From NCBI GenBank assembly GCA_019233975.1, contig JAFALY010000033.1, positions 16,602-80,601 on the forward strand: DNA of 64,000 bases. Reading direction: 5' to 3'. Position 1 is the first letter of the stretch; each line of letters starts with the position of its first letter. The translations under genes and the position numbers were made by a program. Shown here one piece after another: positions 1 to 57,875 of the stretch. Source of the DNA: Alphaproteobacteria bacterium (GTDB lineage Bacteria > Pseudomonadota > Alphaproteobacteria > UBA9219). The notes under the pieces were generated by a model that was not told the origin of the DNA, did no database searches, and was given only the letters and a program-made list of their open reading frames with translations.

Positions 1-601
1 GGACTGTCATATGCCGGACATAAACGGGTATGATGCGACACTTAAAATACGCGAACAGGAAAAAGAAACTGGCCGTCACGTGCCGATCATCGCCATGACG
101 GCCAACACCATGGTAGGCGATAGGGACAAATGTCTGCGCGTCGGCATGGACGAATATATCGGCAAGCCGATCAATGTAGAAGAACTTCGCGAAGCCCTCG
201 GCCAATGGATAAAATTCGACAGTGCCCAGCCCGCCCCAGCATCAACCGCAGATACAGCGGCAACAAAACCTGCCGTCGATTTGGCACGTATAAAAACTTT
301 CTCCGAGGGCGACATTGAGGTTGAGAAAGAATTAATACGCATCTTCAGGGAACAGTCAGACAAGCATATCGCGAATTTGTCACACACACTGGAAGACGGT
401 GATCTAGAGACCTGGCAGGGCGTTGCCCATACCTTTAAAGGCGGGGCACTGAGCGTAGGCGCAGACGTGCTGGGCGCTTACTGTAACGAGGCGCAGCATT
501 TTCAGGGTGATCTGGGTGCACGAACGGATTTATATAACAAAATAAACGCGGCCTATAATGATGCCATCGCCTGCCTGCAGAAGATGGGGCTGACAGACTA
601 A
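1..601 (+). CDS. C-terminal fragment of a hybrid sensor kinase/phosphorelay protein (receiver + HPt); the 5' end lies outside the window
   Basis: The frame is open from nt 2 (DCHMPDINGY...); ORF track 11..601. Receiver motifs 'DCHMPDINGY', 'IIAMTANT', 'YIGKPI'. HPt signature 'HTFKGGALSVGA' near the C-terminus. Confidence 0.8.
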   Translation, partial: DCHMPDINGYDATLKIREQEKETGRHVPIIAMTANTMVGDRDKCLRVGMDEYIGKPINVEELREALGQWIKFDSAQPAPASTADTAATKPAVDLARIKTFSEGDIEVEKELIRIFREQSDKHIANLSHTLEDGDLETWQGVAHTFKGGALSVGADVLGAYCNEAQHFQGDLGARTDLYNKINAAYNDAIACLQKMGLTD

Positions 602-8075: not shown

Positions 8076-11000
8076 GTATTTGCCCTTCTACTGAATTTTC
8101 ACTATCTGCACGGGTCAACGGACGGTTAGCATGCACGAGGCTAAACACCGCAGGCACAAAAAAGAGAGTCGCCACCGTTGCCATCACCAAACCGCCGATA
8201 ACGGCACGACCTAATGGCGCGTTCTGCTCACCGCCATCGCCAAGACCCAATGCCATAGGCACCATGCCGATAATCATGGCCAGCGCTGTCATCATAACGG
8301 GGCGCAGGCGTGTAACGCCAGCCTCCAGCGCAGCCTGCACCGCACTACAACCGTATTCATGCATGCGTTCGCGCGCAAAGCTGACGATAAGAATACTGTT
8401 CGCAGTCGCAACCCCCATACACATGATGGCCCCAGTCAAGGCCGGAACACTAAGTGTTGTGTGTGTTAGAAAGAGCATCCAGACAATGCCCGCCAATGCA
8501 CCCGGCAGGGCTGTGATAATAATGAAAGGATCCGTCCAGGATTGGAAGTTTACGACAATCAGGAAATAAATAAGGACGATGGCCCCCAACAAGCCGAAAG
8601 CAAGGCCCGTAAATGAATCCACCATGGTCTTCATCTGACCGCGGGCAACAATACGCGTACCTTTCGGCAAGTCTTTCTCGGCTGTTTGCAATATTTTATT
8701 GATGTCAGAAGCGATAGACCCCATGTCACGATCCTGCGCAGCGGCAAAAATATCAATAACCGGCTGTACATTATAATGCGATATAACGGCAGGGCCAACA
8801 CCACGCTCCACCGTTGCCAATGATCCAAGTATTTGCGGTTTACCACCCAACGAGGAGGTCACAGGTATATTGCGCAAATCCTCCAACGACGTCAGTGAAT
8901 ATTGTGGCGACTGCGTCACGACATTATAAGAAACCCCATTTTTGGGATCCACCCAGAAGGTTGGCGAGGTCTGGAAACTGCCGCTCAATGAAATCAGCAT
9001 ATTTGTGGCAATGTCACGCTGTGTAATGCCCAATTCCTGTGCACGCGTTCTATCAACCGTCACGTTAAATTCTGGCGCATTAAAGGCTTGCTGTATATGG
9101 CCGTCGACGACCCCTGTTACATGGCGGATTTGATCAAGCAATTTGTCAGCCACAATACGATTAGCCGCGACATTATTGCCGATCACCTGGATATCGATTG
9201 GTGATGGCAGACCAAAATTCAAAATCTGGCTGGTAATGTCTGCTGGCAGAAACGAGAAACTGACGTTCGGCATGGCACCACTTAATTCCGCACGCAATTG
9301 CCGTACATAATCAGCCGTCGGCTTATGTTCAGATGTCAGCGAAATAAAGATGTCGGCATCTTCGGGACCAATCGGGGCTGAATTACTATAAGTCAGATTA
9401 ATACCGCTGTTCGGCAATCCCACATTGTTGACAATGCTTTGCAGGTCATCCTTACCAATAACGTCGCGAATTGTCGTGGCAACCTGATCACAAATGGCTG
9501 CCGTCTCCTCAACACGTGTGCCGGTCGGCGCACGCAGATGTAACTTGATCTGCCCCGCATCAATTAATGGAAAAAAATCAGAACCAAGCCACGGCCCTAA
9601 CACGACAATGGACCCCAATATCAAAGCCAAAAAGCCAGTTATAAAAGAGCGCCGATGTTGTAACGCCGACTCCAGCACAACCTTATATCCACCACGGTAG
9701 GAGTCAAAGCCACGCTCAAACGTCATTTGTATTTTCTGCAATGGATTTCTGGTTGTCGCTTTTTCATGCGACGGCACATGGATACGCAACAGATATTTAG
9801 CCATCGTGGGTACAAGCGTACGCGACAGAAAATAGGATGCCAACATGGCAAAGATAACGGCCTCCGCCATTGGCACGAACAGATAGCGGGCAACACCGGT
9901 CAGGAAAAACATGGGCACGAACACAATGCATATGCATAGCGTAGACACAAGCGCCGGAATGGCAATCTGCTGCGCCCCGTCCAGAATAGACTGGATAACC
10001 CCTTTTCCCTGCTCCAGATGCCAGTTGATGTTTTCAATGGCAACGGTGGCGTCATCAACCAAAATACCGACGGCGAGCGCCAATCCACCCAAAGTCATAA
10101 TATTGACAGTCTCGCCTAATGCCGACAGCACGATGATTGAGACAAGAATAGACAACGGGATTGAAACAACAATGATGAGCGTACTGCGCCAGCTGCCCAA
10201 AAACAAAAGGATCATCATCCCGGTTAGGGCGGCCGCAATGACACCTTCACGGACAACACCGCTGATGGCCCCCTGCACAAATACAGATTGATCGCCGATG
10301 GGATGCAGACTGAGTGTTGACGGCAAACTGGCCTTGATTTGAGGCAAAGTTTTCTTCACCCGCTCAATAATATCCAAGGTCGAGGCGCTACCTGTTTTTA
10401 ACACCGTCATTAAGGCGGCACGTTGTCCATCCACACGAACAATGTTGGTCTGCGGCGCAAAACCATCACGCACATGGGCAACATCACGCACATGAATGAT
10501 CGTGCCATTGACAGCCTTGATAGGCATGTCATTGAGTTGATCAACCACCGTCGGGCTAGCGTTCAGCTTGATGTTGTATTCCAACGCACCAATTTTCTCG
10601 GTGCCAGCTGGGATAATCAGATTTTGCGCGCCTATGGCAGCGTTCACATCTTGCGCCGAAAGGCCCAACGCCTGCAGGCGATTCTGGTCAAGATCGACTA
10701 ATATCTGTCTTACCTTTCCACCATAAGGGAACGGCAAAGCAGCCCCCTGCACCGTCGCCAATTGCGTACGAATAAAATTATTGCCGGCATCAAATAGCTC
10801 CTGCTCGGACAATTGCTGACTGGACAATGCCAACTGCATAATCGGCACGCTGGAGGCATTATAACTTAGCACCAACGGTGGTGTTGAGCCGGGCGGCATG
10901 CTTTTCAACAATGTTTGCGATATTGCCGTAACCTGAGATAAGGCAACATCGATGTTGGTATTGGGTTGGAAATAGATTTTAATAACAGCCACGCCCGTTA

Positions 11001-11466: not shown

Positions 11467-11940
11467 TCAGGTCCACTTCACAGACTCGTCATCGGGCAGC
11501 AAGACCAGATCAACAAAAAATGAGTCAACTGCCCGCGCCACATCCTTGAACATGGAGAGGCTGTTGGGCTTGGCGATATACCCGTTTGCATGCAATTTGT
11601 AACTTTGCATGACATCCTGTTCAGCGCGTGAACTGGACAGCACCACAACCGGTATGTGCTTAAGGTCAGAGTCTTCTTTCAGCACCGACAGAAAATCCAG
11701 CCCATGCATTTGAGGCAAGTTCAAATCCAGAATAATCATGTCCGGGGTCGGCACCATTTCATCTTGCGCTTGCCCACGCAACATGGACAGTGCTGCCTCA
11801 GCCGTTTTGGCATGAACAACGTTATAGGGGCCTTTTAAATCCTTCATGGCTTTGCGCAATAAAAGTGCATCACCATTGTTGTCTTCAATCAACAGTACGA
11901 CAACCGGCCTGTTTTTATTTCTAAGGCAATCCGCTGCCAT
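11467..11940 (-). CDS. Single-domain response regulator (receiver only)
   Basis: 'VVVLLIEDNNGDALL', 'MIILDLNLPQMHG', 'VVVLSSS', 'YIAKP'. AGGTG Shine-Dalgarno. Sits 7 nt downstream of the kinase gene. Confidence 0.9.
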   Translation of the reverse strand: MAADCLRNKNRPVVVLLIEDNNGDALLLRKAMKDLKGPYNVVHAKTAEAALSMLRGQAQDEMVPTPDMIILDLNLPQMHGLDFLSVLKEDSDLKHIPVVVLSSSRAEQDVMQSYKLHANGYIAKPNSLSMFKDVARAVDSFFVDLVLLPDDESVKWT

Positions 11941-11947
11941 GGTGCAC

Positions 11948-13459
11948 CTATTGGTTAGTTAAGGCGTATTTTCGTATCGTAAACGCGAACACACTTCCCC
12001 GCCCCGGTGTTGACGTGGCCCATATTCTGCCGGAATGATTTTCTGCAATTTTTTTGCATATACTCAACCCCAGGCCAACGCCCTGGATTTGATCCCATGA
12101 ATGTAACCGCCGGAACGGTTCAAAAACCTGTTCCAGATATTCAGGTTTGATGCCCATACCATTATCGGTGACGGATAACTGCCAGACATCCCCTTGATCC
12201 TGAATACCCATATGAATGCGCGGCACATTGTTTTCTGGCTGATATTTAATGCCGTTGGCAACAAGGTTCTGCAACAACCGCAGAAGCTGCACCGGGTTTC
12301 CATACAAAGTCGGGAACTGGTCGCATGTAATTTCAACACCGCGCTCTTCGATCAGCCGCCTTAAGTTACCCAAAAGGCCACTGACCAGCTCCTGCCCATC
12401 AAAATCGCGCATTTGCGTATTATCGGATTCAAGGCGTGAATAGGCCAGCAGGTCATCCACCATATCCTTCAATCGCCCACCGGAATTAATGACAACGTCC
12501 AGATATTCTTTTCCCTCTTCGTCCAGAAGGCTTTCGTAATCGCTCTTAATCAACGCGCTGAAATTCGTGATCATGCGGATGGGCTCTAACATATCATGTG
12601 ATGCGATATAGGCGAAGCGCTCCAGCTTTGTATTGGACTCCGCAAGTTTCTGGATCAGCCGCTCCCTTTGCGACTCCAGTGACTTGCGCAAACTGCAATC
12701 CTGAACTGCGGCAATGACCTGCATCTTGCCGTCCGGCAGTTTTGTTTTACTAAGGCCAATTTCCAACGGCACCACACTGCCGTCTTTGCGCTTACCAACC
12801 ACATCACGCCCCAGCGCCATCTGACGCGCACCGCCAGCTAACATGTACTGCGACATATCTTGTTGATGTTTGGAAAGATATTGCTCAGGGATCAGCACCT
12901 CAATTTTCTGGCCGATCAATTCGCTCTCCTCATAATCAAAAATTTTGAGCAAGGACGTGTTGACCGATGTAATCGTGCCCGTAATATCGACGGTCATAAT
13001 GCCGCCGGGCGCCGCATTCATAATGGCTAACAGGCGCAAGGACTCCCCGCGCAGCGCATTTTCTGCATTCTTTTGCGCCGTCATGTCGCGGATAATGCCC
13101 ACGAACACGCGCTTTTCTCCGACGATCATATCGTTGACGCCCAGTTCCATGGGAAACACTTCACCGGATTTACGTCGCCCTGAAACTTCACGACCAATGC
13201 CGATCACCTTCCTGCTGCCGGTCTCTAGATAATTGTGAATGTAGGCGCCATGCTCAGAATGATAAGGCTCCGGCATCAACATGTTCACATTGAGCCCCAT
13301 GACTTCTTCCGGCTGATAGCCAAAGATCTGCGTTGCAGCTTTATTAAAGCTGAGGATCTCACCTCTGCTATTGATCATGACGATACCCTCGAGAACTGTA
13401 TCGAGAACAGTGTTGAGCGGTACGTTTCCTTCAAAGACGTTTTGCATCGGGGCGTCCAC
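11948..13459 (-). CDS. Cytoplasmic PAS-PAS sensor histidine kinase
   Basis: Two PAS-like repeats ('GIVMINSRGEILSFNKAATQIFGY', 'GIMTVDITGTITSVNTSLLKIFDY'). H-box 'FAYIASHDMLEPIRMI'. ATPase motifs 'VTDNGMGI' and 'GVGLGLSICKKI'. No TM segment. Confidence 0.9.
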   Translation of the reverse strand: MDAPMQNVFEGNVPLNTVLDTVLEGIVMINSRGEILSFNKAATQIFGYQPEEVMGLNVNMLMPEPYHSEHGAYIHNYLETGSRKVIGIGREVSGRRKSGEVFPMELGVNDMIVGEKRVFVGIIRDMTAQKNAENALRGESLRLLAIMNAAPGGIMTVDITGTITSVNTSLLKIFDYEESELIGQKIEVLIPEQYLSKHQQDMSQYMLAGGARQMALGRDVVGKRKDGSVVPLEIGLSKTKLPDGKMQVIAAVQDCSLRKSLESQRERLIQKLAESNTKLERFAYIASHDMLEPIRMITNFSALIKSDYESLLDEEGKEYLDVVINSGGRLKDMVDDLLAYSRLESDNTQMRDFDGQELVSGLLGNLRRLIEERGVEITCDQFPTLYGNPVQLLRLLQNLVANGIKYQPENNVPRIHMGIQDQGDVWQLSVTDNGMGIKPEYLEQVFEPFRRLHSWDQIQGVGLGLSICKKIAENHSGRIWATSTPGRGSVFAFTIRKYALTNQ

Positions 13460-35454: not shown

Positions 35455-35553
35455 GTGGGAGATTGAACGGCGACCCGGATCGAAACGTGTTACGGCTGCT
35501 TCCTTTCGGACCTGACCGGGTTGGCACGGGATTCGCCCGCCGCCAACCTCCCG
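35455..35553 (-). ncRNA. ffs: Signal recognition particle RNA (4.5S RNA)
   Basis: The minus strand reads ...GGGAGGUUGGCGGC...CCCGGUCAGGUCCGAAAGGAAGCAGCCGUAAC...GCCGUUCAAUCUCCCACCCC. This contains the conserved domain IV motif GGUCAGGUCC-GNRA-GGAAGCAGCC, with 5'/3' ends that pair (GGGAG/CUCCC). The ends are approximate to +/-5 nt. Confidence 0.9.
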
Positions 35554-49428: not shown

Positions 49429-49728
49429 TTACCTTGTTTTACAATCTGGCAGACATTTTTGTAAAGCCGTACGGCATTCGCCGCTGGCGCCGAAAATACC
49501 GCTGGTTGAGCCGCTGACAGGCCCGTTCTGCGCTGGTTCTGTTTCCATACAACGCGCGTAATCGTCATTACAGGCGCGCATGCATTGCTCGCGGTCATTT
49601 TCAACGACCGCAACACGTCCGTCTTTGTCGATATAGGTGACAGGTTGAGGTTTGCCAGATACGCACCCGGCTAGTGCGCCGCATCCCAGCATCCCCACGA
49701 CAGTGATCATGAGGATGTGGTTGCGCAT
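49429..49728 (-). CDS. Small Cys-rich lipoprotein, unknown function
   Basis: 'MITVVGMLGCGALAGCVSG' lipobox and six further Cys in about 75 mature residues. The start is 3 nt after the rplQ stop. Confidence 0.6.
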   Translation of the reverse strand: MRNHILMITVVGMLGCGALAGCVSGKPQPVTYIDKDGRVAVVENDREQCMRACNDDYARCMETEPAQNGPVSGSTSGIFGASGECRTALQKCLPDCKTR

Positions 49729-51809: not shown

Positions 51810-52190
51810 TTATTTCTTGGTCGCAATCTTCTTGCCGGCAATCGGCTTCGCCTTACCCTTACGCGTGCGCGCATTGGTGTGCGTACGCTGACCGCGCACG
51901 GGCAGACCCTTGCGGTGACGCAGACCGCGGTAGCAGCCCAGGTCCATCAGACGCTTGATGTTCATCGCAACTTCGCGACGCAGGTCACCTTCGACCTTAT
52001 AGTGCTTGTCGATGTCTTCGCGGATGCGCAGGATTTCAGCTTCGGAAAGCTGGTTGACGCGCTTGGCCGGATCAATACCGACGCGTGCGCAAATTTCCAG
52101 GGCGTTGGTCGGGCCAATGCCGTAGATGTAGCGCAAAGCGATGTGAAGAGGTTTTCCTGTCGGAATATTGACGCCAGCTATACGAGCCAC
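51810..52190 (-). CDS. rpsM: 30S ribosomal protein S13
   Basis: '[26 protein letters not shown]'. GTG start with GGAG Shine-Dalgarno. Confidence 0.97.
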
Positions 52191-52324
52191 TTTAGTTATC
52201 TCCGTTGTTCAACCCGTCGCCAAAAAACAAAACCACCGTGTGGGCGTCCCTATGACGCACCAGCAACCCTGTTACAGAGGCGCAAAAATGGGTACAGTCC
52301 CGACATTCGGGACCGAGGAGCGGG

Positions 52325-52352
52325 ATTATAGTGATTAAGACTCGCGAGTCAA
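52325..52352 (-). promoter_or_regulatory. Near-consensus sigma70-type promoter upstream of rpsM
   Basis: The minus strand reads TTGACT (52352-52347), a 16-nt spacer, then TATAAT (52330-52325). This is about 135 nt upstream of the rpsM start and about 73 nt downstream of the kinase stop. Confidence 0.55.
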
Positions 52353-52424
52353 GCACTAGAAAGCAATGCAAAATAAGGTATTTTCACATTACTTTACAGC
52401 ATCTTAGGCCGCTCTAGACCCGCT

Positions 52425-54176
52425 CTATTCTGCGCGCTTGGCGGCAGGACCTGCTTCTGAAACAGACATTTTATAGGGCAGAATTATTGTAAAATTGGTG
52501 CCTTTATAAATCTCTGAGGCAACACTGATTTGCCCGCCTAACAATGACACTTCACGCTGCACAGCTTCCAAGCCAACGCCACGGCCGGAAATATCCGTCA
52601 CATTGTCGCGTGTAGAAAATCCCCACGAGAAAATGCGCTGCAAGACCGTCACGTCATCCTCATTATGCCATGTGCCATGAGGATCTTTTTCTCCTAGCTT
52701 CGCCCGAATGCGCGCGGGATCAATACCGTTGCCGTCATCGCTGACAACAATTTTCAATTGCTCTCCGCCCGAAGCCGTTTGAAGCACCTCAGTGGAAATG
52801 GTCACCAGCCCTAACGGCTCCTTGCCGCGCGCCATGCGGGTGATGGGCGCCTCGATCCCGTGGTCGATAATGTTTCTGCACAAATGCGTAAAGGTAAAGA
52901 ACATGTTGCGCAGCGTCTCCATCAACACTGGCGGATTATCGCCGGTGAATTTGATGGGCTTCATCTGCTTGCCCATGATGGTCGCCAGATCTTGCAGCTC
53001 ACGCTCAAACACACGGAAACAATCACGAATGGGAACAGCGGCGATGACGCGCAGATATTCCTGCACAACATCGTTCGGTGCCCTCATTTCCTGCAAGCGC
53101 ACAGCAAAAGCATAGATGGCGCTATCCGCAATTTCACGCATGTCACCGCGACGTTCATAGTCATGGCCGACGATTTCATTGACCTGATCAATGACCGCCT
53201 TCAGCTGGCTCTGGATTTGCAGGCGCCCCTGCTCCAGCACCATCACAAACTGAACATCGCTTTCAATCTGCGTGCTGCGCAGATCAGATTCCAGCTTATG
53301 AATCGTGGTCGAAAGATCCAGCAGATAATAATGCTTCACAGCCGCCTTCAAGGTGTGCAGCAAGCGCAAAATCGGGGCGCCCTCATCACGCTTGGTGACC
53401 TGTTCTGCATCTGTCAAAAACGTACGTATATGCGTGATTGTCGCGAGAAATTGATTACGCTCACGGAAAATGCGCGTGATCATGGCCGCATAGTTTTGTT
53501 GCTGCAGCGTCCTTTGTTGTGCCTCATGCTCTTCTGTCTGATCGGTCGCGATCACTTCAATGTACGTGAGCGCACCCTCACTATTTCGTATCGCACTATA
53601 ATCCAAAGCAACTATACGGCCACCCGTATGCGGGTAGCGCTGCGGCAGAAACTTCACGACATCGTCGAAGCCGAGCGCATGGTTTGGCATAAACAGAATA
53701 TCAAGCCAGTCCTTGAAATCGCCCAGCTCTTCGGCAGGCACCCTTAGAACATCGCTTATTACTTTGCCGGACGGCGCGCATTCCAACAACTCGACACAGG
53801 CGCGCGAGAACACATCGCCACACACACCGTTTTTGTCGAACGAGAAGAAGCCCTGCTTTAGGCTATCAACCAGAACGCGCGTCAATTGCGCGTGGTTTTC
53901 AACCTCACCATGCATACGGAGGTTGAAATAATACATGCCAGCGATACCGGCAGCGGCCGCAATAACAATGACCAAATAGGCCAGCACATTTGTCATGGGG
54001 TGCAGGCCAAACACCGGCAGACCCAAACCGATCAGCAAGCAAATCGTGATCAGCATCATCCCGGCCAAAGAGGTATGAAGCGCATACAAATCGCTTTTAC
54101 CCATAGCGGAAGCTGCGGGGTTAACCTCAGCCTGCTCCTGCGGGGCGGTATCTGGCGTAGACTGTGACATGACCAT
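52425..54176 (-). CDS. Membrane-anchored CheA-family histidine kinase (2 TM + PAS-like + HPt + dimerisation/ATPase core, no CheW-like domain)
   Basis: TMs 'LAGMMLITICLLIGLGLPVFGL' and 'VLAYLVIVIAAAAGIAGMYYF'. HPt 'LLHTLKAAVKHYYLLDL'. CheA-type P4 'VPIRDCFRVFERELQDLATIMGKQ', 'THLCRNIIDHGIE', 'VSDDGNGID', 'GFSTRDNVTDISGRGVGLEAV'. The protein ends about 35 aa later. Start at 54176 or 54170. Confidence 0.8.
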   Translation of the reverse strand: MVMSQSTPDTAPQEQAEVNPAASAMGKSDLYALHTSLAGMMLITICLLIGLGLPVFGLHPMTNVLAYLVIVIAAAAGIAGMYYFNLRMHGEVENHAQLTRVLVDSLKQGFFSFDKNGVCGDVFSRACVELLECAPSGKVISDVLRVPAEELGDFKDWLDILFMPNHALGFDDVVKFLPQRYPHTGGRIVALDYSAIRNSEGALTYIEVIATDQTEEHEAQQRTLQQQNYAAMITRIFRERNQFLATITHIRTFLTDAEQVTKRDEGAPILRLLHTLKAAVKHYYLLDLSTTIHKLESDLRSTQIESDVQFVMVLEQGRLQIQSQLKAVIDQVNEIVGHDYERRGDMREIADSAIYAFAVRLQEMRAPNDVVQEYLRVIAAVPIRDCFRVFERELQDLATIMGKQMKPIKFTGDNPPVLMETLRNMFFTFTHLCRNIIDHGIEAPITRMARGKEPLGLVTISTEVLQTASGGEQLKIVVSDDGNGIDPARIRAKLGEKDPHGTWHNEDDVTVLQRIFSWGFSTRDNVTDISGRGVGLEAVQREVSLLGGQISVASEIYKGTNFTIILPYKMSVSEAGPAAKRAE

Positions 54177-54186
54177 CCGGGGCGGC

Positions 54187-54687
54187 CTAGCTCCGCAACG
54201 CGTCGTGCAGGGCCACATAAATCTGAAACAGCTGGCCGTTAATGTGGAACGGCACGATCATATATTTGCCGCGATGAAATTGACTGACGAAATGCCCTTT
54301 GCCGGTCACAACGCTGGGAATGCCCAGCTTGATCTGATACCCACGCGCGCCCATATCGCGCTTCACCTGGCCGAAAACCATGTTGGTCATTTCACCAACA
54401 GCGTCAACCGCCATTTCATGCGTGATGGTAACAGCTTTGCCGACGACCTGCGGCAGAAGGCTGCGCACCGTTTCATAGCCCATGCACATGGTCATGGTGC
54501 CTTCCAGTTGCGACTGAACGATTGCAATCACGCCAGACACGTCACCGACCAACGATACCATGCCGTCGCCGATTTCATAAGGTCCCGGCACCACGTCGAC
54601 CATAAAGGTTTCGTGCATCACCTTACATACGGCCTGCGAAATTTCGCGCGCCAGCGTTTCATTAAGTGCGAATGGCTGTCCTGACAT
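54187..54687 (-). CDS. CheX-like CheY-P phosphatase
   Basis: 166 aa. 'VSLVGDVSGVIAIV' and the catalytic-type E-x-x-N segment 'AVGEMTNMVFGQVK' typical of the CheX/CheC/FliY class. Confidence 0.7.
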   Translation of the reverse strand: MSGQPFALNETLAREISQAVCKVMHETFMVDVVPGPYEIGDGMVSLVGDVSGVIAIVQSQLEGTMTMCMGYETVRSLLPQVVGKAVTITHEMAVDAVGEMTNMVFGQVKRDMGARGYQIKLGIPSVVTGKGHFVSQFHRGKYMIVPFHINGQLFQIYVALHDALRS

Positions 54688-54730
54688 GCTACTAACCCGT
54701 GGCGCTATGGTTGTTATGTGTGGCTATGGA

Positions 54731-55168
54731 TCAACGCATCGCCTGCGCCGCTTGCTTCTTGCGCTTGATCCATTCGTAAATTTCACCCAGCTTCTTGCTG
54801 AGGTCCGGCGGAGAAACCGGCTTGATGATGTATGAAGTGGCTCCTGCCTTGATGGCCTTCATAATATTCTGCTGTTCCGACTCGGCGGTCAGCATCACAA
54901 AGGCGGTCGCCGCATATTCAGGCTTGGCGCGGAAGAAACTGAGCACTTCCAAACCGGAAATCGTCGGCATGTTCCAGTCCAGAAAGACAACGTCATAGGG
55001 TTGGTTGACTTCGTGCGCCTTTTGCACCAGGTCAATCGCCTCGTTGCCGTCCGCTGCCGTTTGCACATTCAAAATTTTGGCATCCTGGAGCGTATTGCGT
55101 ACAAATTGGCGGATCAGAAAATGATCGTCTGCCACCAGGACTTTCAGGTCTGACATCTGAGCTGTCAC
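54731..55168 (-). CDS. CheY-like single-domain response regulator
   Basis: 'LKVLVADDHFLIR', 'VVFLDWNMPTISG', 'AFVMLTAESEQQNIMKAIKAGATSYIIKP' closely track CheY. GTG 55168 has GGGGAG 8 nt upstream; ATG 55156 is the alternative start. Confidence 0.85.
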   Translation of the reverse strand: MTAQMSDLKVLVADDHFLIRQFVRNTLQDAKILNVQTAADGNEAIDLVQKAHEVNQPYDVVFLDWNMPTISGLEVLSFFRAKPEYAATAFVMLTAESEQQNIMKAIKAGATSYIIKPVSPPDLSKKLGEIYEWIKRKKQAAQAMR

Positions 55169-55371
55169 GGTATCTTCTCCCCGAATGGAAAGGCTGCGAA
55201 AGGCTTGATGATTCAAACCCGTGGGCTGGAGCGAATGCGAAACTGACTTCGTGATACTGCACAAAAAAGATTGCCGCATGGTTAAACAGTTACCACGAAC
55301 TGCTTAGCCAATAGGTTAGGCGAATATTAACCTTGTTTTTTATTAAGTTCCAGACCGTTTATTCTGGCTGA

Positions 55372-56022
55372 TTAGGCTGATTTTACAAGGCGCAGCAGTT
55401 CCGCCTGTACCTGGTTGATTTCGGCCATGCCGTCTATTGCCTGCAACATCCCCTTCTTTTCGTAATAGGGGAGAATCGGTGCGGTCTGCTCCTGAAACGC
55501 CTTCAGGCGTGTTTTCATGGTTTCCGCATTGTCATCTGGGCGGCGCACAAAATCCGTGCTGCCACATGCGTCGCAAACCCCGGCGACCTTGGTTGGCTTG
55601 AATTTATCGTGATACCCTGCCCCGCATTTGGCACAGGTAAAGCGGCCGGAAACACGTTCAATTAACGCCTCATCGTTCACTTTAAGATGAATAACGGCGT
55701 TCAACCCCTTGTTAAGACGGGTCAACATGTCATCCAAGGCTTCAGCCTGCGGTATAGTGCGGGGGAAACCGTCGAGAATGAATCCCTTGGCACAGTCTGG
55801 CTGAACAATCCGGTTTTCGATCAGGTTGACCATCAAATGGTCAGGGACCAATTGCCCGGAATCAATAATAGCCTTCGCCTTTAGGCCAATCGGGTCACCA
55901 TTCTTGATGGCCGCACGCAACATGTCACCGGTTGATATCTGCACCATGCCCAGCTTTTCTTCGAGCATACGCGCTTGTGTTCCCTTACCGGCTCCCGGCG
56001 GCCCGAGCAGAATGATATTCAT
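55372..56022 (-). CDS. adk: Adenylate kinase (long form with Cys4 lid)
   Basis: '[17 protein letters not shown]', '[10 protein letters not shown]', lid 'CAKCGAGYH...CDACGS'. Confidence 0.97.
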
Positions 56023-56082: not shown

Positions 56083-57417
56083 TTACTTGGTACGCAGCTT
56101 CGCTTTTTTGATCAGGCCTTCATATTGATGTGCAATCAGGTGCGACTGAACACGCGAGATGGTGTCAATCGTCACACTGACAACGATCAGCAACGACGTG
56201 CCGCCCAGATAGAACGGGATGGCGCCCTTGCTCATCAAAAATTCCGGCAGCAAGCAGACAACGGCCAGATAGGCCGAGCCGAGCACGGTCAGGCGCGTCA
56301 GCACATAATCGAAATAATCCGATGTACTTTTGCCGGGACGAATGCCGGGGATGAATCCGCCATGCTTCTTCAAATTATCGGCGGTTTCTTCCGGGTTAAA
56401 CACAACCGCTGTGTAGAAGAACGCAAAAAAGATAATCAGGGCCGCATAAAGCACCATAAACAGAGGCTTGCCATGGCCCAACTCGGCAATCAGGTCAGAT
56501 ACCCATCCGCCTTTTTGCTGTACGTCTGTAAAGCTGGCCAATGTCAGCGGGAACAGCAGCAACGAGCTGGCGAAAATCGGCGGGATAACGCCCGAGGTGT
56601 TGATTTTCAGCGGCATGTGCGATGCTTCACCGCCATACATGCGATTACCCACTTGACGCTTTGGATACTGCACCAGAATACGACGCTGCGCACGTTCACA
56701 GAAGACGCAGAGCGCCAAAACACCAAACACCAGAACGAGGATCAGCAGAATAAACCAGGTCGACAAAGCGCCCGTGCGACCGAGTTCAAGAGTCTGCGCC
56801 ATGGCGTTCGGCAGATTGGCAACGATGCCCGAGTAAATAATCAACGATGTGCCATTGCCAATACCGCGCGCGGTGATTTGTTCACCCAGCCACATCAGGA
56901 ACAACGTGCCGCCCGTCAATGTGGCAACCGTGCTGATGCGGAAGAAAAAGCCCGGCGCCACAACCGCGCCGCCGCCCATCATGTTTTCAAGACCGACAGC
57001 CAACGCGTAAGATTGCACAACCGCAAACGCAACGGTCAGATAACGTGAATATTGGTTCAGCTTGGCACGACCGGTATCGCCTTCCTTCTTCAGCGCTTCG
57101 AACTGCGGCAAAATCGCCGACAGCAATTGCACGATGATGGAGGCAGTAATGTACGGCATAACGCTGAGCGCAAACAGGGTCATACGCTTCAAGGCGCCGC
57201 CCGAGAACATGTCGAACATGCCCAGAATACCGCCGCCATGCTGTTTGAAAATCTGGCCGAGCGCGACAGGATCAACCCCCGGCAGCGGAATGTAGGTACC
57301 AATGCGATAGACGATAAGCGCAAGGAAGGTGAACCAGATGCGGCTTTTCAGCTCGGTTGCCTTGGCGAAGGCTGACATTGAGAGGCCAGAGGCAAGCGCG
57401 TCGTTTGTAGATGCCAT
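56083..57417 (-). CDS. secY: Preprotein translocase subunit SecY
   Basis: 'ELKSRIWFTFLALIVYRIGTYIPLPGV', 10-TM layout, 444 aa. Confidence 0.97.
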   Translation of the reverse strand: MASTNDALASGLSMSAFAKATELKSRIWFTFLALIVYRIGTYIPLPGVDPVALGQIFKQHGGGILGMFDMFSGGALKRMTLFALSVMPYITASIIVQLLSAILPQFEALKKEGDTGRAKLNQYSRYLTVAFAVVQSYALAVGLENMMGGGAVVAPGFFFRISTVATLTGGTLFLMWLGEQITARGIGNGTSLIIYSGIVANLPNAMAQTLELGRTGALSTWFILLILVLVFGVLALCVFCERAQRRILVQYPKRQVGNRMYGGEASHMPLKINTSGVIPPIFASSLLLFPLTLASFTDVQQKGGWVSDLIAELGHGKPLFMVLYAALIIFFAFFYTAVVFNPEETADNLKKHGGFIPGIRPGKSTSDYFDYVLTRLTVLGSAYLAVVCLLPEFLMSKGAIPFYLGGTSLLIVVSVTIDTISRVQSHLIAHQYEGLIKKAKLRTK

Positions 57418-57574
57418 TTCAGAGAACCGTTAAGGAAAAGTAGACAGACCTAAAGGATATAGGGCCTGCCGCTGATCAAAACAAGCAATAGATGTCTAAA
57501 ATTAATTGATATCTATAGTTTTTTGCACAGCAACAAAATGCATGCTGGGCCTTCGCGTCTAACAACCCATAGCA

Positions 57575-57604
57575 TTGCTTGCAATACTTCCCTGTGGTTA
57601 TAAT
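57575..57604 (+). promoter_or_regulatory. Putative sigma70-type promoter for the opposite-strand small ORF
   Basis: TTGCTT (57575-57580), an 18-nt spacer, then TATAAT (57599-57604), 31 nt upstream of the ATG at 57635. Confidence 0.45.
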
Positions 57605-57634
57605 CCGTGCGTATTGACATATGTGGAGATTATT

Positions 57635-57784
57635 ATGACAAGCAATGTTCAAAACAATAGTGGTCAAGAAAATGGAACCGCTGAAGAATGGGCCAACTAC
57701 TATAAGGGTGGAACATCGGAGCGCCCCAAAGGTCAAATAGTAGACTGGGCTGCATACCTGAGAGCCATCTTTGGCGGCGGCTAA
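57635..57784 (+). CDS. 49-aa hydrophilic small protein of unknown function
   Basis: GGAGA (57625-57629) lies 5 nt before the ATG. 'MTSNVQNNSGQENGTAEEWANYYKGGTSERPKGQIVDWAAYLRAIFGGG'. It has its own promoter-like and terminator signals. No homology recognised. Confidence 0.5.
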   Translation: MTSNVQNNSGQENGTAEEWANYYKGGTSERPKGQIVDWAAYLRAIFGGG

Positions 57785-57824
57785 TAGATTTCAATTCATT
57801 GACTGACTTAGCGATAGGCAAAAC

Positions 57825-57856
57825 AAAAAAGCTGCAGATTTCTCTGCAGCTTTTTA
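57825..57856. terminator. Bidirectional rho-independent terminator between rplO and the small ORF
   Basis: AAAAAAGCTGCAG-ATTTCT-CTGCAGCTTTTT. The minus-strand RNA gives stem AGCUGCAG/CUGCAGCU followed by UUUUUUGUUUUG, 20 nt after the rplO stop. The plus-strand RNA gives the same stem followed by UUUUU. Confidence 0.75.
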
Positions 57857-57875
57857 AACTTCATAGCCTATAGAC

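Follow-up and report, generated by a model that had tools for sequence, protein, structure and literature searches.

A CheA-type kinase without P5, encoded with CheY-like and CheX-family proteins between adk and rpsM in an uncultured alphaproteobacterial clade

Three signalling genes between adk and rpsM

We analysed a stretch of 64,000 nucleotides (nt) from Alphaproteobacteria bacterium (GenBank assembly GCA_019233975.1, contig JAFALY010000033.1, positions 16,602 to 80,601), hereafter the window, in which three signalling genes separate adk from rpsM. The order rplO-secY-adk-rpsM-rpsK-rpoA-rplQ is the usual conserved arrangement of the spc-alpha ribosomal genes, and other bacteria have a natural operon boundary at the spc|alpha junction. 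In the window, adk is not followed directly by rpsM; 3.2 kb and three genes intervene, and the order on the minus strand is secY, adk, response regulator (RR), CheX, kinase, rpsM, rpsK, rpoA, rplQ. The open reading frame (ORF) of secY occupies 56083-57417 and is followed by adk (55372-56022; Pfam ADK, 2.9e-56), the upstream neighbour of the module and the last gene of the spc-type block. The module itself, hereafter also the trio, consists of genes for a CheY-like single-domain RR of 145 amino acids (aa) with a GTG start (54731-55168; Response_reg, 4e-27), a predicted CheX-family phosphatase of phosphorylated CheY (CheY-P) of 166 aa (54187-54687; PF13690 CheX, 2e-16) and a CheA-like sensor kinase of 583 aa (52425-54176; Pfam HATPase_c, 5.5e-16, with CheA P3-P4 in the PDB profile search). 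Next comes rpsM (51810-52190; Ribosomal_S13, 8e-33), the first gene of the alpha-type block rpsM-rpsK-rpoA-rplQ. The spacers measure 203 nt (adk-RR), 43 nt (RR-CheX), 10 nt (CheX-kinase) and 234 nt (kinase-rpsM). What is new at this locus is a CheA-class kinase that has no P5, is fused to predicted transmembrane helices and a PAS-like sensor, is paired with CheY and CheX, and is encoded inside the ribosomal supercluster.

An earlier note on this DNA had reported three same-strand genes between adk and rpsM, and the ORF coordinates and spacers agree with it. The CheY-like, CheX-like and CheA-like identities that it proposed are upheld by Pfam, NCBIfam and PDB profile matches, the CheA-like identity in part, as described below. 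Its remark that base composition is continuous also holds, as the GC (guanine plus cytosine) content of the module is 0.49-0.56 versus about 0.53-0.60 in the surroundings, with no step.

In the kinase, Pfam recognises HATPase_c alone and the NCBIfam CheA models cover residues 338-586 only. A profile built from 83 kinase orthologues matched CheA P3-P4 in the PDB at 4e-37 and P4 at about 1e-36. In the AlphaFold2 model (mean predicted local distance difference test score, pLDDT, 85.7), two transmembrane helices at about 34-56 and 64-86 are joined by a very short loop, residues 108-212 have PAS topology, a helical bundle at 214-340 carries His274 in LHTLKAAVKHY, and a P3-like helical pair (351-401) is followed by a CheA-type P4 (408-575). 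The protein aligned with Escherichia coli CheA from residue 270 on and with Thermotoga maritima P3P4, and Pfam H-kinase_dim was unmatched. In a Foldseek search with the model, CheA P4 targets gave TM-scores of 0.73-0.80, within an overall P3P4/P4 range of 0.57-0.80, and full-length PAS or LOV sensor kinases were also returned with low TM-scores. The N, G1 and G2 boxes (HxxRNxxDHGIE with H431/N435, DDGNGID and GRGVG) are invariant in the orthologues. The catalytic P4 core is CheA-type, and residues 108-212 are, as modelled, a PAS-like domain, in which C119 and C127 are conserved. The match of the helical bundle to P1 is weak (2ld6, E = 0.002) and aligns His274 to CheA His48; this histidine is invariant, also in homologues of 25-37% identity. 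An alternative kinase start at 54218 was discarded, as the homologue alignment gives it no support.

Pfam found no P5/CheW domain in the kinase, the chain of which stops at residue 583, about 8 residues past P4, and P5 is likewise absent from the 83 aligned orthologues. There is no P2 either, as the Hpt-like bundle (to 340) leads straight to the P3-like helices (from 351). The name CheA-like given in the earlier note therefore stands for the catalytic core and not for the whole architecture: because the kinase lacks P5/CheW and P2 and has predicted transmembrane helices and a PAS-like domain, it is CheA-like in its predicted chemistry and cannot be a canonical receptor-coupled CheA. CheA-type kinases are textbook non-sensing kinases, which depend on receptor arrays through P5 and CheW. 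A P5-less family with a membrane anchor and a PAS-like sensor would show that the CheA class can act as a direct sensor kinase for CheY and CheX.

The product of 54187-54687 is classified by sequence as a CheX-family predicted CheY-P phosphatase. PF13690 scored 60.2 bits against a gathering cut-off of 27, and the PDB matches are CheX/CheC-like (3h2d, 3iic and 6vpw, 1e-14 to 1e-17). Its ExxN motif is E99/N102 in GEMTNM, and the E and N of GE(I/M)TNM are invariant in 54 orthologues; Glu-x-x-Asn is reportedly the catalytic motif of CheX.

The RR starts at GTG 55168, 4-5 nt 3' of the Shine-Dalgarno sequence GGGGAGAAG. A longer RR ORF (54731-55279) was rejected as spurious because its ATG belongs to the conserved non-coding motif TTAACCATG. 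The best NCBIfam model for the RR is CheY, at 92.3 bits and thus under the equivalog cut-off of 189, and the closest PDB matches are the CheY proteins of E. coli and Salmonella (about 1e-24). Residues D14, D15, D64 (the acceptor), T94, Y113 and K116 are all present and are invariant in 53 orthologues, and the CheY signatures DWNMP, TAE and YxxKP (as YIIKP) are retained. Pfam found no DNA- or RNA-binding output domain. Judged by these residues and matches, the RR is a CheY-like single receiver with the residues of phospho-chemistry kept. Its C-terminal tail, with the conserved EWIKRKK and ending in ...EWIKRKKQAAQAMR, is basic. Cle proteins are defined by a tandem arginine-rich [YF]xGP[DE][RK]R motif (PMC5677366), and a reading of the RR as a Cle-type effector of cyclic di-GMP was rejected because this tandem motif is absent from the tail.

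Conserved upstream elements and the history of the junction

The module and rpsM each have a conserved element upstream of them. The element of the module (55253-55286, minus strand), a probable promoter/operator recognised by its TTAACCAT core and its conservation in the clade, spans about 34 nt and reads TTTAACCATGCGGCAATCTTTTTTGTGCAGTATC in the window and YTTAACCATRCGGCAAGGTTTTTRTGGCAAAAATC in the clade consensus. The core TTAACCAT lies at 55278-55285, 110 nt before the RR start, and is the sole copy in the window. An exact TTAACCAT was found at most 230 nt upstream of the RR in 33/49 sequences, with most of the others having one mismatch, against a background of 0.01 per 230 nt; each locus has a single copy of the extended motif, always at this position. 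Published work describes TTAACCAT as the ungapped motif bound by CtrA and places activating CtrA sites near -35 (PMC6180460). By the definition of a CtrA box (TTAA-N7-TTAA or ungapped TTAACCAT), the sequence upstream of the RR contains one. A second TTAACCAT lies about 50 nt upstream of a gene for a methyl-accepting chemotaxis protein (MCP) in one related locus (L004), and another precedes the RR of a paralogous set (L070). We infer a CtrA-type promoter/operator belonging to the module itself, the expression of which would probably follow the cell-cycle/motility programme and not the ribosomal genes, since a conserved box of its own points to separate regulation. No ctrA gene is present in the window. 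Two other readings of the element were set aside on inspection of the consensus by eye: for sigma-54 the -12 GC is not conserved (TTGT or TTAT), and the sigma-28 consensus is absent.

Upstream of rpsM, the promoter-like site TTGACT-N16-TATAAT (52325-52352, minus strand) has 11/12 consensus matches and is the best site in 7 kb. The pattern TTGAC[TA]-N16-TATA[ACT]T was found upstream of rpsM in 30/41 sequences, and because relatives have the same promoter-like site there, rpsM is predicted to have its own conserved, near-consensus sigma-70 promoter. The earlier note had taken this promoter to be a new one, explained by the insertion; the promoter is there and is conserved in the clade, but nothing shows that the insertion caused it, the junction being a natural spc|alpha boundary. 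Between the promoter and the gene lies the rpsM 5' leader (52191-52324), for which a consensus fold of 15 aligned leaders gave 21 pairs, of which 3 show compensatory changes. It contains in order a 5' hairpin with compensatory changes, a long-range stem CCG...GGC/GCC...CGG and a U-rich tract TGTTTTTGTTGTTTTTTTT abutting the Shine-Dalgarno sequence, and homologous leaders were found in L004, L013, L020, L023 and other loci. This leader is possibly an attenuator or a ribosomal-protein autoregulatory leader. An Rfam scan of the whole window returned a signal recognition particle (SRP) RNA alone and no leader or riboswitch near the module or rpsM; the hit is an ordinary bacterial small SRP RNA (35455-35551, minus strand; RF00169, 56.7 bits).

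A search of 5.8 billion proteins with the kinase gave 236 matches, and a scan of one genome per GTDB species gave 141 relatives, for which 77 loci were retrieved. Among the matches listed (the best 120 of 236), full-length homologues of 48-75% identity were found, all of them from metagenomes or metagenome-assembled genomes (MAGs); the locus of 75% identity lies in runs of the series SRR22388xxx. More than 50 species-level MAGs, which bear the labels Alphaproteobacteria, 'Rhodospirillaceae', 'Bdellovibrionales' or 'Micavibrio sp.', contributed the orthologous loci. Because the NCBI taxonomy places Micavibrio in Bdellovibrionales, these mixed labels are consistent with a Micavibrio-related alphaproteobacterial clade, which the carriers would then represent. 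Every orthologous locus that has its upstream side on the contig retains the unbroken order RR-CheX-kinase. Leaving aside L058 and L059, the two deepest branches, orthologues across the clade are 76-96% identical in the RR, 53-93% in CheX and 46-75% in the kinase; the figures for adk and rpsM are 62-82% and 75-95%, so that the RR is more conserved than adk.

Both flanks could be read in 42 species. The arrangement adk, trio, rpsM, with adk and rpsM split by the trio as in the window, is found in 19/42 species, the deepest branches included; 14/42, which form one clade, have the trio and rpsM without adk, 5/42 have adk and the trio without rpsM, and in 4/42 neither gene is beside the trio. In a neighbour-joining tree of the kinase, adk|trio|rpsM is the arrangement of the basal branches and of the deepest, outgroup-like ones, L058 and L059, the kinase identity of which is 36-37%. 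The adk-less arrangement corresponds to one clade, the sister of the window's lineage, and the trio became separated from rpsM in several independent events. With the trio intact throughout the clade and adk|trio|rpsM in its deepest branches, the insertion is ancient and vertically inherited, and linkage to ribosomal genes is frequent but dispensable. The earlier note had thought that the insertion might be old, which the presence of the trio at the same junction throughout this clade of uncultured relatives bears out. The same comparison removes the impression of a one-genome oddity, the relatives that share the trio being many, though none of them is characterised.

It is hardly credible, then, that this genome alone acquired the module recently, by horizontal transfer or as a mobile cassette. 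The interruption of a conserved gene order is what such a cassette would produce, but the same trio lies at the same junction in dozens of species, the kinase tree agrees with the arrangement classes, and around the module there is neither a GC step nor flanking direct or inverted repeats, nor an integrase or transposase. A clade-wide junction, vertical inheritance and the lack of a GC step and of repeats effectively refute a recent origin by mobility or horizontal transfer.

The junction tolerates other genes as well. In L058 (4709-5938, minus strand) and L059 (4607-5893, minus strand) an opposite-strand gene that looks by eye like a major facilitator superfamily (MFS) transporter lies between adk and the RR, and L058 also has a YbjQ-like-looking gene, again by eye, between the kinase and rpsM (8960-9292, minus strand). 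In L004 (7843-9291), and also in L005, a soluble MCP with a C-terminal CZB (zinc-binding) domain is encoded between the kinase and rpsM. The kinase next to this MCP has no P5 through which to couple to it. L004 and L005 are the same place in two assemblies, and the other loci with inspected genes have no MCP. Such a neighbour raises the question whether the kinase works in canonical chemoreceptor arrays after all, through a separate CheW, CheV or P5-bearing CheA partner. Split CheAs do exist, e.g. CheA3/CheA4 of Rhodobacter sphaeroides, and the predicted P3-P4 core of the kinase is of the CheA type. We nevertheless regard this as very unlikely, as neither a P5 nor a CheW gene was found in any locus inspected, the kinase has its own predicted membrane anchor and PAS-like sensor, and among the loci with inspected genes the MCP neighbour is confined to a single place.

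A further question is whether the position itself is functional, i.e. whether the module is co-transcribed with or regulates rpsM-rpsK-rpoA-rplQ or adk and couples an environmental or energy signal to the synthesis of ribosomes and RNA polymerase, for example in switching between motility and growth. The trio is directly upstream of rpsM in 33/42 species and downstream of adk in 24/42, convincing terminators flanking it were not found (folding after the kinase stop gave an AU-rich hairpin alone, z = -1.2), the conservation of the RR equals that of ribosomal proteins, and Micavibrio expresses its ribosomal genes and its motility genes in opposite phases (PMC3189940). We consider this coupling unlikely. 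The linkage to rpsM is lost in 9/42 species on several branches and that to adk in 18/42, while the trio is never broken, which argues against a functional tie to ribosomal-protein expression. The trio and rpsM each carry their own conserved promoter elements, the RR has no output domain for DNA or RNA, and the junction has room for further genes, as the MFS-like transporter, the YbjQ-like gene and the MCP show. We instead favour an insertion at the spc|alpha boundary in the ancestor of the uncultured Micavibrio-related clade, where the module would most likely be a passenger, its position persisting because the flanking blocks rarely rearrange. The locus, a clean and datable case in which a signalling operon entered at the spc|alpha boundary and has been vertically inherited since, is useful as a synteny marker of the clade and as a test case for tolerated insertions in the ribosomal supercluster; if the position is only historical, this is a modest, annotation-level result.

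The ribosomal supercluster is fragmented at several points in the clade, since the gap between rplO and secY is also filled or broken in relatives. In the window this gap (57418-57875) has 458 nt and a GC content of 0.46, and inside it lies a strong hairpin of the terminator type (57826-57855, minus strand), its 13-bp stem accompanied by a T-run. Three unrelated genes occupy the gap in L001 and L017, and non-ribosomal genes precede secY in L087. Beyond rplQ, before the gene of a DegP-like protease, the window has a Cys-rich ORF of 99 aa with a lipoprotein-like N-terminus (49429-49728, minus strand), which most related loci retain with 30-60% identity.

The proposed phosphorelay and its output

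We lean, with limited confidence, towards reading the trio as a self-contained CheA-type phosphorelay that is independent of receptor arrays and probably controls motility, a passenger at its insertion site that is uncoupled from the ribosomal genes. The kinase would be anchored in the inner membrane by two helices with a very short outer loop, and its cytoplasmic PAS-like domain would sense the signal, for which an Aer-like redox or energy input is a reasonable guess. His274 of the kinase's own Hpt/P1-like bundle would be autophosphorylated by means of the CheA-type P3-P4 core, and the phosphoryl group would pass to Asp64 of the adjacent CheY-like RR; CheX (E99/N102) would dephosphorylate CheY-P and reset the signal. 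These partners are assigned on the basis of adjacency and strict co-conservation. The output would most likely be binding of CheY-P to the flagellar switch, a direct taxis pathway from sensor to motor, which is favoured because the RR is CheY-like, CheX is present, and the CtrA-type box and the MCP neighbour agree with it. The module would be transcribed from its own promoter region with the CtrA-type TTAACCAT box.

Several observations weigh against this reading. Pfam Hpt was unmatched for the kinase of the window at E <= 0.01 and was precomputed in a subset of homologues only, so the Hpt assignment is weak by sequence (the P1 match at E = 0.002 mentioned above). Pfam PAS was also unmatched in the kinase, and the PAS call comes from the predicted fold. 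Flagellar, cheW, cheA and mcp genes are all absent from the window, which bears on the motor output. If TTAACC of the upstream element is taken as a -35 in a simple sigma-70 promoter, the distance to any -10-like hexamer is too long, and with 25 conserved bases beyond the CtrA-type box another regulator could bind there. No canonical terminator was found on either side of the trio, towards adk or towards rpsM, which makes read-through co-transcription possible, and selection could underlie the retention of rpsM directly downstream of the trio in the 33/42 species. A profile search and a cluster look-up gave MAG proteins only and no cultured carrier.

The wider family bears on the output as well. 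The same genomes often carry a paralogous set that is 29-35% identical (L065, and also L064, L067, L068 and L082). In L065 (4594-8461) it comprises an RR, CheX, a 378-aa protein that looks FIST-like by eye, and a soluble kinase of 582 aa with the same PAS-like/Hpt/P3/P4 core (IHTLKGLAGTF) and no transmembrane helices. Used alone against 1.84 billion representatives, the PAS-Hpt half of the kinase had matches in 586 clusters (50% identity) at E <= 1e-10; these are 550-880 aa long, the few named members being 'Oligoflexia' or alphaproteobacterial MAGs. Loci L071-L085, from MAGs labelled as Bdellovibrionota (Bdellovibrionaceae, Bacteriovoracaceae and Oligoflexia), have kinase homologues of 29-32% identity with longer, varied N-termini. 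Two predatory lineages may have the kinase family in common; alternatively, the labels may stem from the NCBI placement of Micavibrio in Bdellovibrionales. In the chemotaxis gene list of Micavibrio aeruginosavorus ARL-13 there is nothing beside rpsM (GMV2111), so the cultured Micavibrio aeruginosavorus probably lacks the module at this site. A literature search on P5-less, transmembrane or PAS-bearing CheA-like kinases with CheX gave nothing relevant. Elsewhere in the window, two places look by eye like further two-component genes and appear unrelated to the module: a 157-aa receiver beside a 503-aa, possibly PAS-type kinase (11467-13459, minus strand), and a receiver-containing ORF that is cut by the window start (11-601, plus strand).

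The paralogues and the labels of the relatives also leave room for the same phosphorelay with an output other than the motor, such as type IV pili, attachment or the switching of predation phase, or development, as in an 'alternative cellular function' chemosensory-type module. The score of the RR is 92 bits versus a CheY equivalog cut-off of 189, its basic C-terminal tail is absent from E. coli CheY, the P5-less kinase uncouples the module from chemotaxis arrays, a second paralogous set of RR, CheX, FIST (by eye) and kinase per genome suggests diversified roles, and relatives are labelled as Micavibrio or Bdellovibrionales, lineages with biphasic life cycles. However, the closest matches of the RR are bona fide CheY proteins, and the RR keeps most residues of the alpha4-beta5-alpha5 face, which we take to be the equivalents of I95, A103, Y106 and K119 in E. 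coli CheY numbering. The MCP gene of L004, with the same upstream box, adjoins the trio, and motor-binding CheY is the described target of CheX phosphatases (PMC8789113). A non-motor output is a serious possibility, although we do not expect it, and a motility phosphorelay remains the reading that we prefer. Rather more speculative, and doubtful in our judgement, is a broader extension, by which the trio would represent an unrecognised chemotaxis-type class in which a membrane anchor and PAS domain replace the P5/CheW/MCP coupling. This three-protein taxis circuit of sensor-kinase, CheY and CheX would be controlled by CtrA and long retained within the ribosomal supercluster of a Micavibrio-related, possibly predatory clade, with its placement helping to set motile- versus growth-phase expression.

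Comparison with known systems

The class II CheA proteins (P1-P5) of E. coli and Thermotoga maritima share with our kinase the CheA-type P4 with the N, G1 and G2 boxes and, as predicted from profile and model, P3, and in both cases the phospho-acceptor histidine is placed on a separate Hpt-like helical bundle (as predicted for our kinase) and not on a DHp helix. Unlike these proteins, the kinase has no P2 and no P5, hence none of the known coupling to MCP/CheW arrays, and its N-terminus is predicted to consist of two transmembrane helices and a PAS-like sensor, with the Hpt between the sensor and P3. A membrane anchor with nearly no periplasmic loop and a cytoplasmic PAS-like input ahead of a CheA-type kinase and CheY also resemble Aer-type energy taxis, a likeness that does not go beyond functional analogy. 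Aer, an MCP-like receptor, requires CheW and CheA, whereas here sensor and kinase would be one polypeptide with no MCP signalling domain.

The CheY3-CheX pair of Borrelia burgdorferi and the CheX of Thermotoga likewise have the gene of a single-domain CheY-like receiver beside that of an ExxN CheX; in those pairs, however, a full CheA is encoded together with cheW, whereas the partner here is a P5-less sensor kinase. Cle proteins, like the RR, are alphaproteobacterial and CheY-like with a short basic C-terminal extension. The RR differs from them in having no arginine-rich motif, in its intact acceptor chemistry and in the dedicated kinase and phosphatase that are predicted to be encoded beside it. 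Finally, CtrA-dependent motility and chemotaxis promoters, as in Caulobacter, Rhodobacter fla2 and Ruegeria, share the exact TTAACCAT box with the module and with the neighbouring MCP gene, but the predicted box of the module differs from those promoters in being part of a longer conserved element of about 34 nt.

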